This document shows, one piece after another, positions 25,060 through 63,866 of a stretch of 64,000 nucleotides of DNA; position 1 is the first letter of the stretch; each line of letters starts with the position of its first letter. Under the pieces are notes generated by a model, which had not been told where the DNA came from, did no database searches, and saw only the letters and a program-made list of their open reading frames with translations. Source of the stretch: a virus; IMG/VR virus record IMGVR_UViG_3300022934_000004, one strand, 5' to 3'. The position numbers and the translations under genes are program-made.

Positions 25060-25137
25060 TTCAAAATACGTTGCCTATGATGATAGTACTGGCAAAGTGA
25101 TAATTATATCACAGTATAAAAAAATAATTTTTAGCCA

Positions 25138-25166
25138 TTTACAATCCTTGGGATATGTGGTTAAAT
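25138..25166 (+). promoter_or_regulatory. Putative promoter of the tmRNA precursor
   Basis: TTTACA-17-TTAAAT with TGTGG extension. Confidence 0.5.
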
Positions 25167-25171
25167 AAACA

Positions 25172-25470
25172 AGTAGATGTTAGAGGGTATTCAGGACCGC
25201 GGGGCGGTACCGCGCAGCTCCACCATAAACACTTGGAGAATGAAATGAGTGATATAGTTACATATTTGTCATTGAGACTTGTACAGTACGGATTGGTAAT
25301 TGTACTATTTGGAAGTTTATTAGAAGTGTTTTTGATGGGGCTGAAATAGGATCGACTGGTATTTGAGTCTACGAAAATCAAATGCAAACGATAACTTTGC
25401 ACCATCTGGTTACGCTCTAGCAGCATAACACAGGGGGTTGGCCACTTACCTAGCAACAGAAAAGTGGTGA
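25172..25470 (+). ncRNA. ssrA: Circularly permuted two-piece tmRNA (alphaproteobacterial type); acceptor piece ~25172-25225, intervening segment 25226-25336, coding piece 25337-~25470; tag ANDNFAPSGYALAA*
   Basis: T-arm CGCGG-GGCGGTA-CCGCG followed by CAGCTCC-ACCA (25198-25225) lies upstream of the 5' strand GGGGCTG (25337), pairing with G3.U70; resume codon GCA at 25384, stop at 25426-25428; outer ends approximate. Confidence 0.93.
25245..25349 (+). CDS. Putative 34-aa hydrophobic peptide encoded in the tmRNA intervening segment
   Basis: GGAG RBS at 25235-25238, ATG at 25245; MSDIVTYLSLRLVQYGLVIVLFGSLLEVFLMGLK. Confidence 0.4.
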   Translation: MSDIVTYLSLRLVQYGLVIVLFGSLLEVFLMGLK

Positions 25471-25499
25471 ATTCGCACAGAAATAGTAAAGGAAGAAAA

Positions 25500-60056: not shown

Positions 60057-60660
60057 AGTGGCTCATCTTATTGGCAACGGGAAATCATCTGCACTTTATA
60101 ACCCTTCAAAAGGATTGAAAATTACTTGTAATGTTCCTCCATTTGAAGTTGCTAATTGCTACACTACTGTAATGGTAGATTTTAAAATGATGAAAGCAAT
60201 TAATGAGGGAAGTGTACAAGTTGCGGGTGATTGGGTTTTAGGTGCTAGACCTAAAAAATGGATGGAAATGAAGCCACATTTTTACATGAAATATGCACAA
60301 CAAATTAAAAAATTTTACACAGTTCTGCCGCCATATTGTCCAAATTATACAGATTTTAATTGTGGTCACATGGCAACACACTACATTGTAAATCCAAAAG
60401 CTGGCGGCTTAGGATGTGATGAAATCCATATGTATGGATTTGATTCATTATTTTCATTTGACACAACAAGTATGTCAGATATGTTTTTACAATCTGATAG
60501 AGGAAACAACCAAACGGAAAAACTAACTCGTCGGTGGAGACCAGTATGGATGGGAATATTTAGAGAATTTTCTAATACTCAGTTTGTTGTATATAATCAT
60601 AAAGGCGATACCGGTGTAATGAATTTTCCTAAAAATGTAGAGGTAAGAGATGGAAAATGA
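60049..60660 (+). CDS. Sialyltransferase-like (GT29/GT42/MAF fold) protein
   Basis: LIGNGKS...CN, NCG..A, IHMYGFD. Confidence 0.5.
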   Translation: MSKVAHLIGNGKSSALYNPSKGLKITCNVPPFEVANCYTTVMVDFKMMKAINEGSVQVAGDWVLGARPKKWMEMKPHFYMKYAQQIKKFYTVLPPYCPNYTDFNCGHMATHYIVNPKAGGLGCDEIHMYGFDSLFSFDTTSMSDMFLQSDRGNNQTEKLTRRWRPVWMGIFREFSNTQFVVYNHKGDTGVMNFPKNVEVRDGK

Positions 60661-60752
60661 AGCATTATCGGAGGGCGATAGTGATGACCCATGCGATGAT
60701 TGTACGGATTTTGAACAATTGTGGAAGTGGTATGAACCACAGAAAGTAGATA

Positions 60753-60959
60753 ATGATGACACATAGTGTAGAAGATTTTTATAATAAAATTAAAGTTATG
60801 CATGATAAAGGTATTGAACTCCACCGCGAACGATATAGAGTTCAAGGATGGTATGATAAAGCACGATGTCAATATATGGTAGACGATATTAAAGCTTTAG
60901 CACGAGATATTGAACACGGGCTTATTGACTTAAATATTGACTTTGGAAAAAAAACGTAA
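60753..60959 (+). CDS. Hypothetical protein
   Basis: ORF ending in the repeated promoter element. Confidence 0.5.
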   Translation: MMTHSVEDFYNKIKVMHDKGIELHRERYRVQGWYDKARCQYMVDDIKALARDIEHGLIDLNIDFGKKT

Positions 60960-61016
60960 GTAGTTGATTTCTAAAGAAACAAAAAGGTGTACAATCGGTT
61001 TAAACTATGGTAGATT
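60948..61016 (+). promoter_or_regulatory. Early promoter with upstream IHF-consensus box
   Basis: TAAGTAGTTGATT at 60957-60969; TGTACA(60988)-17-TAGATT. Confidence 0.75.
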
Positions 61017-61046
61017 AGTACTATAAGGTAAACAAAGGAAAATCAA

Positions 61047-61277
61047 ATGTCAAGAATTACACATCTTCCAAACGGTTCAATGATTAAAGCTGACGTAGTT
61101 GCAAGCTTCGACAAAGCAATTCGCGATGACTTTAACCTTCGCCCTGGTTTTGGTTCAACAGATTTTTGGAATTTTGTTGAGTCTGATATGTATATGGACT
61201 TATCTGGCATTTATGCTTCATCTTATATTGATGAATGCTTTGAAACTTTAGCCGATCTTGAAATGGAGACAGTATAA
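61047..61277 (+). CDS. Early hypothetical protein
   Basis: AAGGA RBS; WNFVESD. Confidence 0.6.
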   Translation: MSRITHLPNGSMIKADVVASFDKAIRDDFNLRPGFGSTDFWNFVESDMYMDLSGIYASSYIDECFETLADLEMETV

Positions 61278-61678
61278 TGGAATTCACTTACTCAGACGAT
61301 TGCTTCTCAGACCTTCATAAAGATGTTTATGGGTTTCGTCCTCGTGGTATTATAATGGACGATTGGAATGATCGTACTCCTCGCCAAAAACAAGAGCTAT
61401 GGAATGCTCTTTGTGACCAGCTTGAGGAGAATACTGCTCGTGAAAAAAAGATGGAAGCAATGAAAGTTGATGAATTCAAAGAGCGTATTCATCAAGCTCA
61501 AACCTGGGGTGCCAGAGATTATTGGGACGCTCTTCGCTGGATCACCGGCTGTGAAACTTTTTATCACATTCAAGACGTTGAACACTATGTGTGGGAGCAA
61601 GGTATCTTGTTTACACAGTATGGTAAACAGCTTGTCGAAGATCTTGCCAAAGTGGTAGAATATAAAGAGTTTGCATAA
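61277..61678 (+). CDS. Early hypothetical protein
   Basis: SDLHKDVYGFRPR. Confidence 0.65.
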   Translation: MEFTYSDDCFSDLHKDVYGFRPRGIIMDDWNDRTPRQKQELWNALCDQLEENTAREKKMEAMKVDEFKERIHQAQTWGARDYWDALRWITGCETFYHIQDVEHYVWEQGILFTQYGKQLVEDLAKVVEYKEFA

Positions 61679-61881
61679 TGCATTGGGTCCTAGTATACAT
61701 CGTAATTTCTGGTCATTCAATTTATGCTGTTAATGCTATGGGCCCAAAAACTTATTTTGCAACTATTAATGATTGCTTTTTTGCTCGAGAAAGATTGTCA
61801 GTGACAGTAGGTGGAGATGTAGAAGGTTACTTTCCTACTAATAGTCAAGCAATTTGCGTACAAGCCTCCGTGGTGGAATAG
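61678..61881 (+). CDS. Small signal-anchored two-Cys protein; stop codon lies inside tRNA-Leu
   Basis: MHWVLVYIVI...FATINDC...AICV. Confidence 0.55.
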   Translation: MHWVLVYIVISGHSIYAVNAMGPKTYFATINDCFFARERLSVTVGGDVEGYFPTNSQAICVQASVVE

Positions 61882-61948
61882 GTAGACACAAGAGACTTAA
61901 AATCTCTCGCCTAGAGGCGTACCGGTTCGAGTCCGGTCGGAGGTACCA
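61864..61948 (+). tRNA. tRNA-Leu(UAA)
   Basis: Cloverleaf with long variable arm; AGAGA-CTTAAAA-TCTCT; GGTTCGAGTCC; encoded CCA. Confidence 0.95.
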
Positions 61949-61950
61949 AT

Positions 61951-62027
61951 GGTCACGTAGCTCAACTGGATAGAGCAGCTGACTTCTAATCAGCAGGTTG
62001 AGGGTTCGAGTCCTTCCGTGATCGCCA
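61951..62027 (+). tRNA. tRNA-Arg(UCU)
   Basis: GCTGA-CTTCTAA-TCAGC; GGTTCGAGTCC; encoded CCA. Confidence 0.95.
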
Positions 62028-62034
62028 AAAACAA

Positions 62035-62580
62035 ATGAAAAATAATATGATTCTAACAATTAAATTTAAACGACATTTGGAAGTAAAAGACACTTTACTT
62101 GAAATGATAGCTAGTACTCCATCAGGAAATATTCTTGAAGGACAAGATAAAATTCAAAATACTGATTGGCATCACTCAGGTGGGCAGCCACAAGCATATT
62201 GGAATTTTGTAGGACCAATTATCTTTCAAGAGCTTGAACCTATTATTACTGAAAAGCTTTTACCTGATAGTTGGAGTATTAAAAATGCTTGGTTTCAACA
62301 ATATGAAACTAAAGATACTCATTCTTGGCACGTTCATCCAGGAAGTTTTTGGAATGCTGTATATTATATTGAATTACCAGAAGATGGGCCTTCTACTCAA
62401 ATGCAAATGCCTATCACACGTGAAGTAATAACACCACAAGTTACAGAAGGTGATATAATTATATTTCCTGCTGTATATCGTCATAGATCAGCACCAAATG
62501 AATCGAAGAAAAGAAAAACAATTATCTCATTTAATATCAATGCAAATGAGGTAGTATCTCGGAGTAGCGCAGGCTGGTAG
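62035..62580 (+). CDS. 2OG-Fe(II) oxygenase; stop codon lies inside tRNA-Pro
   Basis: HSWHVH, VYY, EGD..IFP...HRS, K.IISFN. Confidence 0.75.
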   Translation: MKNNMILTIKFKRHLEVKDTLLEMIASTPSGNILEGQDKIQNTDWHHSGGQPQAYWNFVGPIIFQELEPIITEKLLPDSWSIKNAWFQQYETKDTHSWHVHPGSFWNAVYYIELPEDGPSTQMQMPITREVITPQVTEGDIIIFPAVYRHRSAPNESKKRKTIISFNINANEVVSRSSAGW

Positions 62581-62634
62581 CGCATTTGGTTTGGGACCAA
62601 AGGGTCGGGAGTTCAAATCTCTCCTCCGAGACCA
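62558..62634 (+). tRNA. tRNA-Pro(UGG)
   Basis: CTCGGAG/CTCCGAG acceptor stem; TTTGG-TTTGGGA-CCAAA; GTTCAAATC; encoded CCA. Confidence 0.92.
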
Positions 62635-62655
62635 AATTTAACGAAAGGATATATA

Positions 62656-62772
62656 ATGGCAAAAGGCTTTACAAACGCTAAGAAAACATCAATTGGTAGA
62701 AGAAATGTAAAAACGTCTTCTATGAATAAAAGTAAAAAACGTAGTTTTAAAAAATACAGGGGACAAGGGTGA
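62656..62772 (+). CDS. 38-aa basic peptide ending KKYRGQG, not in ORF track
   Basis: AAGGA RBS; MAKGF...MNKSKKRSFKKYRGQG. Confidence 0.6.
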   Translation: MAKGFTNAKKTSIGRRNVKTSSMNKSKKRSFKKYRGQG

Positions 62773-63371
62773 ACTACTACTTATTTGGGTTACAGAGATC
62801 AGGAACAAATTTAGTCCACAATTTAATTAAAGATAATTATGGATTGGAACCAGCAAATTCTGGACATGAAGAGTGGAAACACTCTATGAAACCTGATTTA
62901 AAAAATGATTATCCAATTTTTAAAGTAATCAAAAATCCATACACTTGGGTTGAATCTATAGTTTATAGAGAACGTGCAGATTTTTATGAAAAACATGATT
63001 ATGATTTTTTCCAACCAGGACCATTTATGGTGGAAGATGTTAATTTAAATATGTTGATGTACGTTTATAAAACTTGGTATGATCAATGGAAAGATAAAGG
63101 CATACTCATTAAATATGAGGATATTTTATATCCAGAACAACAAAGAGAATATTTTGCAAAACACTTTGGAGATTTAGGTGATTGGAAAACAGTTGCACCT
63201 GGATCTATGTTTATGTGTGAAGATTTTAAAGAAGAGCACTTAGAATATTATGAAAAGCAAAGACCAACGAAACTAACTGGTATGCATGTGAAAATAATTA
63301 ATAAAGTGATGACTAAATATTTCTTTATTGAAACTGGATTTAAAATGTTAAGAGTAAAAGGATTAATCTAA
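62769..63371 (+). CDS. Sulfotransferase-like protein
   Basis: GLQRSGTN, WKH, KNPY.W..S, IKYED. Confidence 0.7.
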   Translation: MNYYLFGLQRSGTNLVHNLIKDNYGLEPANSGHEEWKHSMKPDLKNDYPIFKVIKNPYTWVESIVYRERADFYEKHDYDFFQPGPFMVEDVNLNMLMYVYKTWYDQWKDKGILIKYEDILYPEQQREYFAKHFGDLGDWKTVAPGSMFMCEDFKEEHLEYYEKQRPTKLTGMHVKIINKVMTKYFFIETGFKMLRVKGLI

Positions 63372-63866
63372 AACCATAAATCTGCGAAATCCAATTGCAG
63401 TAGATAAAGGTCTTTCTCCAATTGTTACTTGGTTTTTATCATTTCCACTTATAATAACAACATATTCTTTATTATCTCTTTTTCTCATTTCTAAGAAAAA
63501 CCCAACATGACCTTGCCAGTCTTCACCATCTTCTCTTGGGAAAACTATAATATCTCCTTGAGTTAAATCTTGAGGAAGAATTTGTTGGCCATATTGTAAA
63601 AAGCTTCTTGCAAGTAAAGATGTTTCAGGATCAATAATTTCAGTACCCCAATATCCTGATTGTTGTAAAACTGAATTCATAAATGCTGCACACCAAGGTG
63701 TAACAAATGGATCGACATTAAGAAATTTTTTTAGTTCTTTTCTATGCGTTTTTTCATTATATCCAATATACATATAACTATTCGAAATAAAAGGATGAAC
63801 GTAATCAGCCGCGGCTGAAGTACTTAGTGCTAGTGCACCTACTGTAAAAAAAGTAATTTTTTTCAT
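63363..63866 (-). CDS. Secreted NlpC/P60-CHAP peptidoglycan hydrolase (TIGR02594-like)
   Basis: Signal peptide; PWCAAF, ARS, GD..VF.R, GHVGF, GN. Confidence 0.85.
   Translation of the reverse strand: MKKITFFTVGALALSTSAAADYVHPFISNSYMYIGYNEKTHRKELKKFLNVDPFVTPWCAAFMNSVLQQSGYWGTEIIDPETSLLARSFLQYGQQILPQDLTQGDIIVFPREDGEDWQGHVGFFLEMRKRDNKEYVVIISGNDKNQVTIGERPLSTAIGFRRFMVLD

Follow-up and report, generated by a model that had tools for sequence, protein, structure and literature searches.

Systems in which RNA maturation removes, or was proposed to remove, a stop codon

RNase P cleaves at position +1 of tRNAs and of the tRNA-like domain of tmRNA, and ribosomes arriving at the stop-less 3′ end of a message are rescued by tmRNA-SmpB, which leaves the product tagged. 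In mitochondrial mRNAs, partial stop codons are completed by polyadenylation. Among phages, the closest described case is the segB gene of T4, for which maturation of tRNA-Arg was proposed to cut the message right after its final sense codon, ahead of the stop, lowering its expression and yielding a premature protein (Brok-Volchanskaya et al. 2008, PMC2330249), and the same effect was suggested for the F-Tfl endonuclease ORFs in the tRNA cluster of T5 (PMC2330249). For bacteria, Hudson, Lau and Williams (2014) describe overlaps between coding sequences and tRNA or tmRNA genes whose maturation gives a non-stop substrate for trans-translation, including the smpB gene of Carsonella, which runs into ssrA; of 115,660 t(m)RNA genes they found 250 to be overlapped by an upstream CDS, a rare event in a count restricted to Pfam-positive CDSs (PMC4131195). 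Control through a message of this kind was demonstrated for the arfA gene of Escherichia coli, whose non-stop mRNA is generated by RNase III and stands under tmRNA control (PMC3985003). Non-stop mitochondrial mRNAs have also been documented (PMC9674279), and the two-piece tmRNA is known from pelagimyophages and from the Methylophilales phage Melnitz (Buchholz et al. 2022, PMC9004378).

The DNA analysed here, a stretch of 64,000 nucleotides that we will call the window, belongs to a low-GC (34%) T4-like marine phage of the pelagimyophage/Melnitz-like T4-type. As in the Melnitz-type phages of PMC9004378, an alphaproteobacterial-type permuted ssrA is accompanied by Arg and Leu tRNAs in a marine T4-like genome; the keyword passages of that paper mention neither ORF/tRNA overlaps nor reading frames within the tmRNA intervening segment. 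GenBank phages gave no match to 20 kb of the window (megablast) or to its tmRNA region (blastn), and the comparisons below were made with viral contigs, labelled by L-numbers (L001, L161 and so on). An initial annotation of this DNA had pointed out that two ORFs of the window stop inside downstream tRNAs and that an ORF within the tmRNA shows the same arrangement, and had proposed that RNase P maturation would turn these proteins into substrates of the phage's own tmRNA, with simple genome compaction as the alternative.

The likeness to T4 segB lies in phage ORFs that are placed within a tRNA cluster, with which they are presumably co-transcribed here, and whose stops would be severed by maturation. 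However, segB encodes a homing endonuclease needing low expression and is cut just before its stop, whereas here the products are an oxygenase and a small protein of membrane type, whose reading frames continue for 5–7 codons inside the tRNA. The layout is also that of the class of Hudson et al., a CDS that lies upstream on the same strand and stops within the mature tRNA or tmRNA. By a rough comparison in which the criteria differ, such overlaps, affecting 20 of 355 distinct tRNAs in our viral contigs, are far commoner than the 0.2% published for bacteria. The arfA gene illustrates how the initial proposal would work, in that its stop is lost to site-specific processing and what becomes of the product depends on tmRNA activity. 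Such regulation makes sense for a backup rescue factor, whereas here there is no functional logic tying the genes to ribosome rescue, and an overlap conserved across homologues, as an arfA-like case would have it, is limited to the window and its relatives L161/L162. Moreover, as in mitochondrial tRNA punctuation, the oxygenase gene is bounded by tRNAs, with 7 nt on the upstream side and an overlap on the downstream one, and tRNA excision would define both ends of its mRNA; unlike in mitochondria, the stop is a complete TAG within the tRNA, and excision would take it away. The idea of a stop-less message was already published, for T4 segB (PMC2330249) and for Carsonella smpB-ssrA (PMC4131195). 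What is new here is an example of overlap that involves genes other than nucleases, in a phage equipped with a tmRNA, together with a rough estimate of the frequency of these overlaps in viral contigs.

Three reading frames closed inside RNA genes

The tRNA island of the window comprises, all on the + strand, tRNA-Leu(UAA) at 61864–61948 (Rfam, 56.5 bits), tRNA-Arg(UCU) at 61951–62027, which follows after a gap of 2 nt, and tRNA-Pro(UGG) at 62558–62634 (Rfam, 62.8 bits), each of them called by both ARAGORN and Rfam. The tRNA and tmRNA genes are valid, with scores above gathering (ARAGORN and Rfam), intact acceptor stems and an encoded CCA. A blastn search with the island returned the tRNAs as sole matches, and folding of the whole island gave nothing interpretable beyond them.

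ARAGORN, Rfam and frame analysis confirmed the coordinates first noted for the two junctions of the island. At the first one, the gene for a small protein of 67 aa (61678–61881, + strand) reaches tRNA-Leu without any in-frame stop 5′ of it and closes at TAG 61879–61881, which corresponds to positions 16–18 of the tRNA, residues 63–67 (ASVVE) being contributed by tRNA nucleotides 1–15. Homologues of this protein were found at 85% and 59% identity, and a profile search with them collected 133 cluster representatives, nearly all of 57–70 aa, which share a hydrophobic N-terminus and four invariant residues, L5, C33, Q57 and C60, two of them cysteines. The conserved core of the family extends up to C60, after which the tails differ in length and content. 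No Pfam family matched the ORF, which, judged by this pattern of conservation, is a real gene of a widespread and uncharacterised family. Members of the family occur in many differing neighbourhoods on marine phage-like contigs. The overlap itself is kept only in the close relatives L161/L162, which retain the 67-aa gene entering tRNA-Leu in a stretch that has diverged by roughly 10%. Five other family members have stops of their own and are followed by protein genes instead of tRNAs, namely an HNH endonuclease, a DnaB helicase, a cytochrome c-like gene or genes of unknown function. Since homologues elsewhere carry their own stops, the overlap is a property of the junction in this lineage and not of the genes. 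A 181-aa gene beside the 67-aa homologue of L163 was also considered and is not an oxygenase, so that no ancestral pairing of the 67-aa gene with an oxygenase can be claimed.

The second junction involves a gene for a 2OG-Fe(II) oxygenase of 181 aa (62035–62580, + strand; PF13759, phrog_81), which exactly occupies the gap from tRNA-Arg to tRNA-Pro. Its frame has no stop 5′ of tRNA-Pro and terminates at TAG 62578–62580, positions 21–23 of the tRNA, in such a way that residues 175–181 (SRSSAGW) are encoded by tRNA-Pro. In an alignment with 19 homologues, the last conserved block is KTIISFN, ending at N167, and the family tails beyond it are unconserved stretches of 0–25 residues. The protein carries every motif of its family, and its sequence identifies the ORF as a real gene. 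The best homologue anywhere reaches 44% identity and IMG/VR contains no close relative, so that this junction can be compared only in the identical copies L166/L167. The oxygenase of L289 has its own stop and ends 95 nt short of a tRNA-Arg. On the 5′ side, the ATG of the oxygenase follows the tRNA-Arg CCA by 7 nt, within A-rich sequence (62028–62050) where no Shine-Dalgarno match precedes it, and the message would be nearly leaderless once tRNA-Arg had been excised.

The third case is found in the permuted alphaproteobacterial-type tmRNA (25135–25472, + strand; Rfam RF04321, 87.2 bits, and RF01849, 72.1 bits), where the layout shared with the two tRNA junctions was corroborated. Rfam and the sequence place the acceptor piece, the 3′ half of the tRNA-like domain, at 25173–25225 (+), ending in CCA at 25225. 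It is followed by an intervening segment of 111 nt (25226–25336, +) and by the coding piece (25337–25472, +), which runs from a 5′ GGGGCUG through the tag frame and encodes the tag ANDNFAPSGYALAA. A hydrophobic ORF of 34 codons (25245–25349, +), preceded at 6 nt by GGAG, fills most of the segment and stops at TAG 25347–25349, positions 11–13 of the coding piece. Comparison with L088 revealed 7 synonymous and 5 conservative codon changes between identical flanks, a third-position-biased and conservative pattern which suggests that this ORF, with no match in Pfam, is probably a real small gene. A longer version of 64 aa (25155–25349) was rejected as a gene, as it reads through the acceptor piece of the tmRNA; the internal ATG at 25245, with its GGAG, is the conserved start.

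The keyword passages of PMC9004378 and PMC4131195 contain no description of protein genes within tmRNA intervening segments. Most of the 82 distinct intervening segments of this tmRNA type have no ORF, and the ORFs within the others form several unrelated families, with quite different endings. A TAG internal to the tmRNA is used in the families of window/L088, L044/L045, L071 and L139, and also in L073, where the ORF ending in this way overlaps a second one; a TGA 2–4 nt 5′ of the cleavage site closes the ORFs of L048/L059 and L093/L126, a stop of their own those of L067, L073 and L101, and the ORFs of L055 and L096 run on further. Such varied endings are what one would anticipate of ORFs that each fill their segment and use the first in-frame stop, and they do not fit a requirement for stops past the RNase P site. 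Small ORFs of 27–62 codons occur in the intervening segments of permuted tmRNAs on many marine contigs within L044–L160 (among them L044, L045, L048, L059, L088, L093, L126 and L139), in families with conserved proteins, third-position-biased change and GGAG or AAGGA upstream.

Packing, base rates and the mosaic tRNA island

With tRNA-Arg located 2 nt after tRNA-Leu, every RNA 5′ end that has an ORF immediately before it shows the overlap, three out of three, as had been remarked initially. How unusual this is can be judged from the packing of the phage itself: according to the independent gene calls of the identical phage copy L166, 23 of its 38 same-strand gene junctions overlap (61%), nine of them by 10–20 nt, and at this rate three overlaps out of three are expected with a probability of 0.22. 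Moreover, for 377 distinct phage tRNAs, 52% of the incoming frames stop within 25 nt, and 84% of the stops within those tRNA starts are TAG, with peaks at positions 8–10 and 21–23, while elsewhere the phage uses TAG less than any other stop (12 of 79 long ORFs). These statistics indicate that a TAG in the D-loop is simply what a tRNA presents to an entering ORF.

A background was obtained from 118 unrelated viral contigs, retrieved by a tRNA D-arm pattern and containing 185 tRNA cluster heads. ORFs of 60 aa or more enter 20 of these heads, another 54 have an ORF ending no more than 30 nt upstream, and the remaining 111 show neither situation. No tmRNA was found on any fragment that has one of these 20 overlaps; these contigs being fragments, that the rest of their genomes lacks a tmRNA is deduced from the rarity of this gene, present in 2.3% of phage genomes (PMC9004378). 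In the contigs selected for a tmRNA of the present type, together with the window, overlaps amount to 4 of 15, or 3 of 14 once the related L069 and L077 are counted as one. The rate of 3/14 is nominally above that of 20/185, with a Fisher p of 0.21, for a small sample made of contig fragments. Measured against the rate at tight junctions (20/74, 27%), the overlaps of the window have a p of 0.07 for the two tRNAs and of 0.02 when the tmRNA is included, in a post hoc calculation of low power, and there may be a mild enrichment over that rate.

The genes that enter tRNAs in other contigs are diverse. In four of them (L183, L194, L213 and L283), ORFs of 174 aa end at tRNA positions 8–10, CpeT being confirmed in L183 and L283. 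DUF7212 ORFs enter tRNAs in three contigs (L184, L226 and L252), and in L195 and L271 a serine hydroxymethyltransferase (SHMT) gene runs into tRNA-Asn and a cupin/nucleotidyltransferase gene into tRNA-Arg. A 59-aa ORF entering tRNA-Pro in L094 was discarded as spurious, since it spans tRNA-Trp.

The surroundings of the island offer a mosaic picture. Upstream of the 67-aa gene lies a gene of 133 aa and unknown function (phrog_21968; 61277–61678, + strand), whose TAA overlaps the ATG of the former (ATAATG) and which is carried by 43 viral contigs of IMG/VR (L001–L043), most of them without any tRNA downstream. In these 43 contigs, the DNA similarity is confined exactly to the borders of the 133-aa gene (61276–61680, ATAATG included), which suggests that gene-sized cassettes are swapped at gene boundaries. 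The order of the elements also changes among relatives: the 67-aa gene entering tRNA-Leu, then tRNA-Arg, then the oxygenase gene entering tRNA-Pro in the window; the 67-aa gene entering tRNA-Leu, then tRNA-Arg, tRNA-Pro and a segment of 285 nt, with no oxygenase, in L161; and an oxygenase gene, at some distance from a tRNA-Arg followed by a 67-aa-like gene, in L289. DNA homology to L161 resumes at about 62638, shortly 5′ of a 38-aa gene (phrog_17967) that, with a 200-aa gene, lies downstream on the + strand (62656–63371) in the same presumed transcription unit. The 285-nt segment of L161 (3438–3727), an unrelated sequence placed after tRNA-Pro, shows G+C-rich hairpins and a hydrophobic ORF of 33 codons, and matched no Rfam family. 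In L027 (1625–1644) and L035 (610–628), a run with stops in several frames (TGAATAATATAAT) stands directly before tRNA-Arg, and the ORFs end 6 nt before this tRNA and not within it.

The island is part of a series of genes on one strand, and 60600–63500 contains no + strand site resembling a terminator; the simplest reading of such a series is a single polycistronic transcript. Promoter-like matches around the island were no more frequent than in shuffled sequence.

Probable compaction and a proposed programmed loss of the stop

We think it probable that the overlaps are by-products of extreme packing and of cassette shuffling in a hypervariable tRNA island. Genome compaction, which the initial annotation had named as the alternative, fits best with the packing of the phage, the stops present in tRNAs, the shuffling and the generality of the layout. 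A gene placed against a tRNA or tmRNA without a stop of its own would send its frame into the RNA gene, where conserved triplets (U8-A9-G10, the D-loop GGUAG or the AAAUAGG of the tmRNA) would close it within about 25 nt, and the residues added in this way fall in unconserved tails, so that the proteins should still work. In other words, a tightly packed phage genome would be using the invariant TAG triplets of tRNAs and tmRNA as free stop codons. Borrowed stops of this kind are routine in marine phages, at about 1 in 9 tRNA cluster heads of our sample, and they also serve well-known enzymes.

The consequences for the messages can be laid out in some detail. Genes and tRNAs would share one polycistronic transcript, and on the unprocessed precursor ribosomes would terminate normally at the borrowed TAGs. 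If there is such co-transcription, it is a sound expectation that maturation of the tRNA or tmRNA would sever the stop from its ORF. Host RNase P would cut at 61863/61864 and 62557/62558 and leave stop-less upstream fragments, the 67-aa message ending in ...GUA-CAA, after Q62, and the oxygenase message in ...GUA U, one base past codon 174; added A residues would give neither of these ends an in-frame stop without further assumptions. Late ribosomes would then be rescued and their products tagged by the host or the phage tmRNA, with exonucleases also taking part in clearing the fragments, and the shorter productive life of both messages would be a tolerated cost with no dedicated control circuit. 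Each overlap thus predicts a defined non-stop message and a tagged product, which makes it a test substrate for the function of phage tmRNAs.

An unlikely alternative, in our opinion, is a dedicated control coupled to processing, where RNase P maturation would make non-stop substrates of the phage tmRNA out of chosen messages and the protein yield would be set, in the manner of E. coli arfA, by a race between ribosomes and RNA processing. The overlap of all three ORF-to-RNA junctions of the window would suit such a control, and so would the presence of a complete two-piece tmRNA, the persistence of the 67-aa/tRNA-Leu overlap in L161 despite the divergence between both phages, an independent 73-aa ORF that enters tRNA-Pro on another tmRNA-bearing contig (L069/L077), and the very existence of programmed non-stop control in arfA (PMC3985003). 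However, homologues of both genes are found elsewhere with their own stops and with no tRNA partner, overlaps are not significantly more frequent where a tmRNA is present (p=0.21, in a small sample), and ordinary enzymes show the same layout on contigs without a detected tmRNA. Moreover, the stops of the intervening-segment ORFs occur on both sides of the cleavage site, and the two proteins of the island have no common feature suggesting joint control. The initial annotation had itself named two observations that would speak against a coupling by design to the tmRNA of the phage, homologues that stop before the tRNA and overlaps equally frequent in phages lacking a tmRNA. Both were largely made, the first with the 67-aa family members followed by protein genes and with the oxygenase of L289, the second, in small numbers, with the overlaps free of any detected tmRNA (20/185 against 3/14), which leaves that coupling unsupported.

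The broader version of the idea, that marine T4-like phages with a two-piece tmRNA deliberately end genes in tRNAs and tmRNA as an arfA-like, phage-encoded circuit, strikes us as slightly more doubtful still. If it were true, the amounts of selected early proteins, and likewise of the peptide of the intervening segment, would be set by how ribosome transit weighs against RNase P processing, with the phage tmRNA as the readout. Nothing found here points to a phage exploiting the loss of its stops, or to a new mechanism.

The coupling could also be imagined in the reverse direction, with translation of the upstream ORF unfolding the acceptor and D stems and thereby delaying or gating the maturation of the tRNA or tmRNA, as ribosomes would enter the first 18–23 nt of the tRNAs or the first 13 nt of the coding piece. 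Positioned in the acceptor/D-arm region, the stops do oblige a terminating ribosome to cover the 5′ strand of the acceptor stem, and the ORF of the tmRNA is located in a segment that must be excised. Yet the effect would be transient and no comparative signal accompanies it, most related tRNAs and intervening segments having no ORF reading into them, so that we rate this reverse coupling below the control schemes just discussed, as rather improbable.

That the overlapping ORFs should be no genes, or have miscalled ends, a view which the short length of the 67-aa and 34-aa ORFs and their lack of a Pfam family might invite, is very hard to believe in view of the residues invariant across 133 clusters of the 67-aa family, the complete set of family motifs in the oxygenase, the absence of in-frame stops before the RNA genes and the conservative, third-position-biased changes of the intervening-segment ORF. 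Given that overlaps are routine, annotators ought not to trim or discard ORFs of this type. As for the RNA genes, ARAGORN missed the permuted tmRNA of the window despite its Rfam score of about 87 bits, and detected the related tmRNA of L012, with the tag ANDNFAPSGLRLAA.
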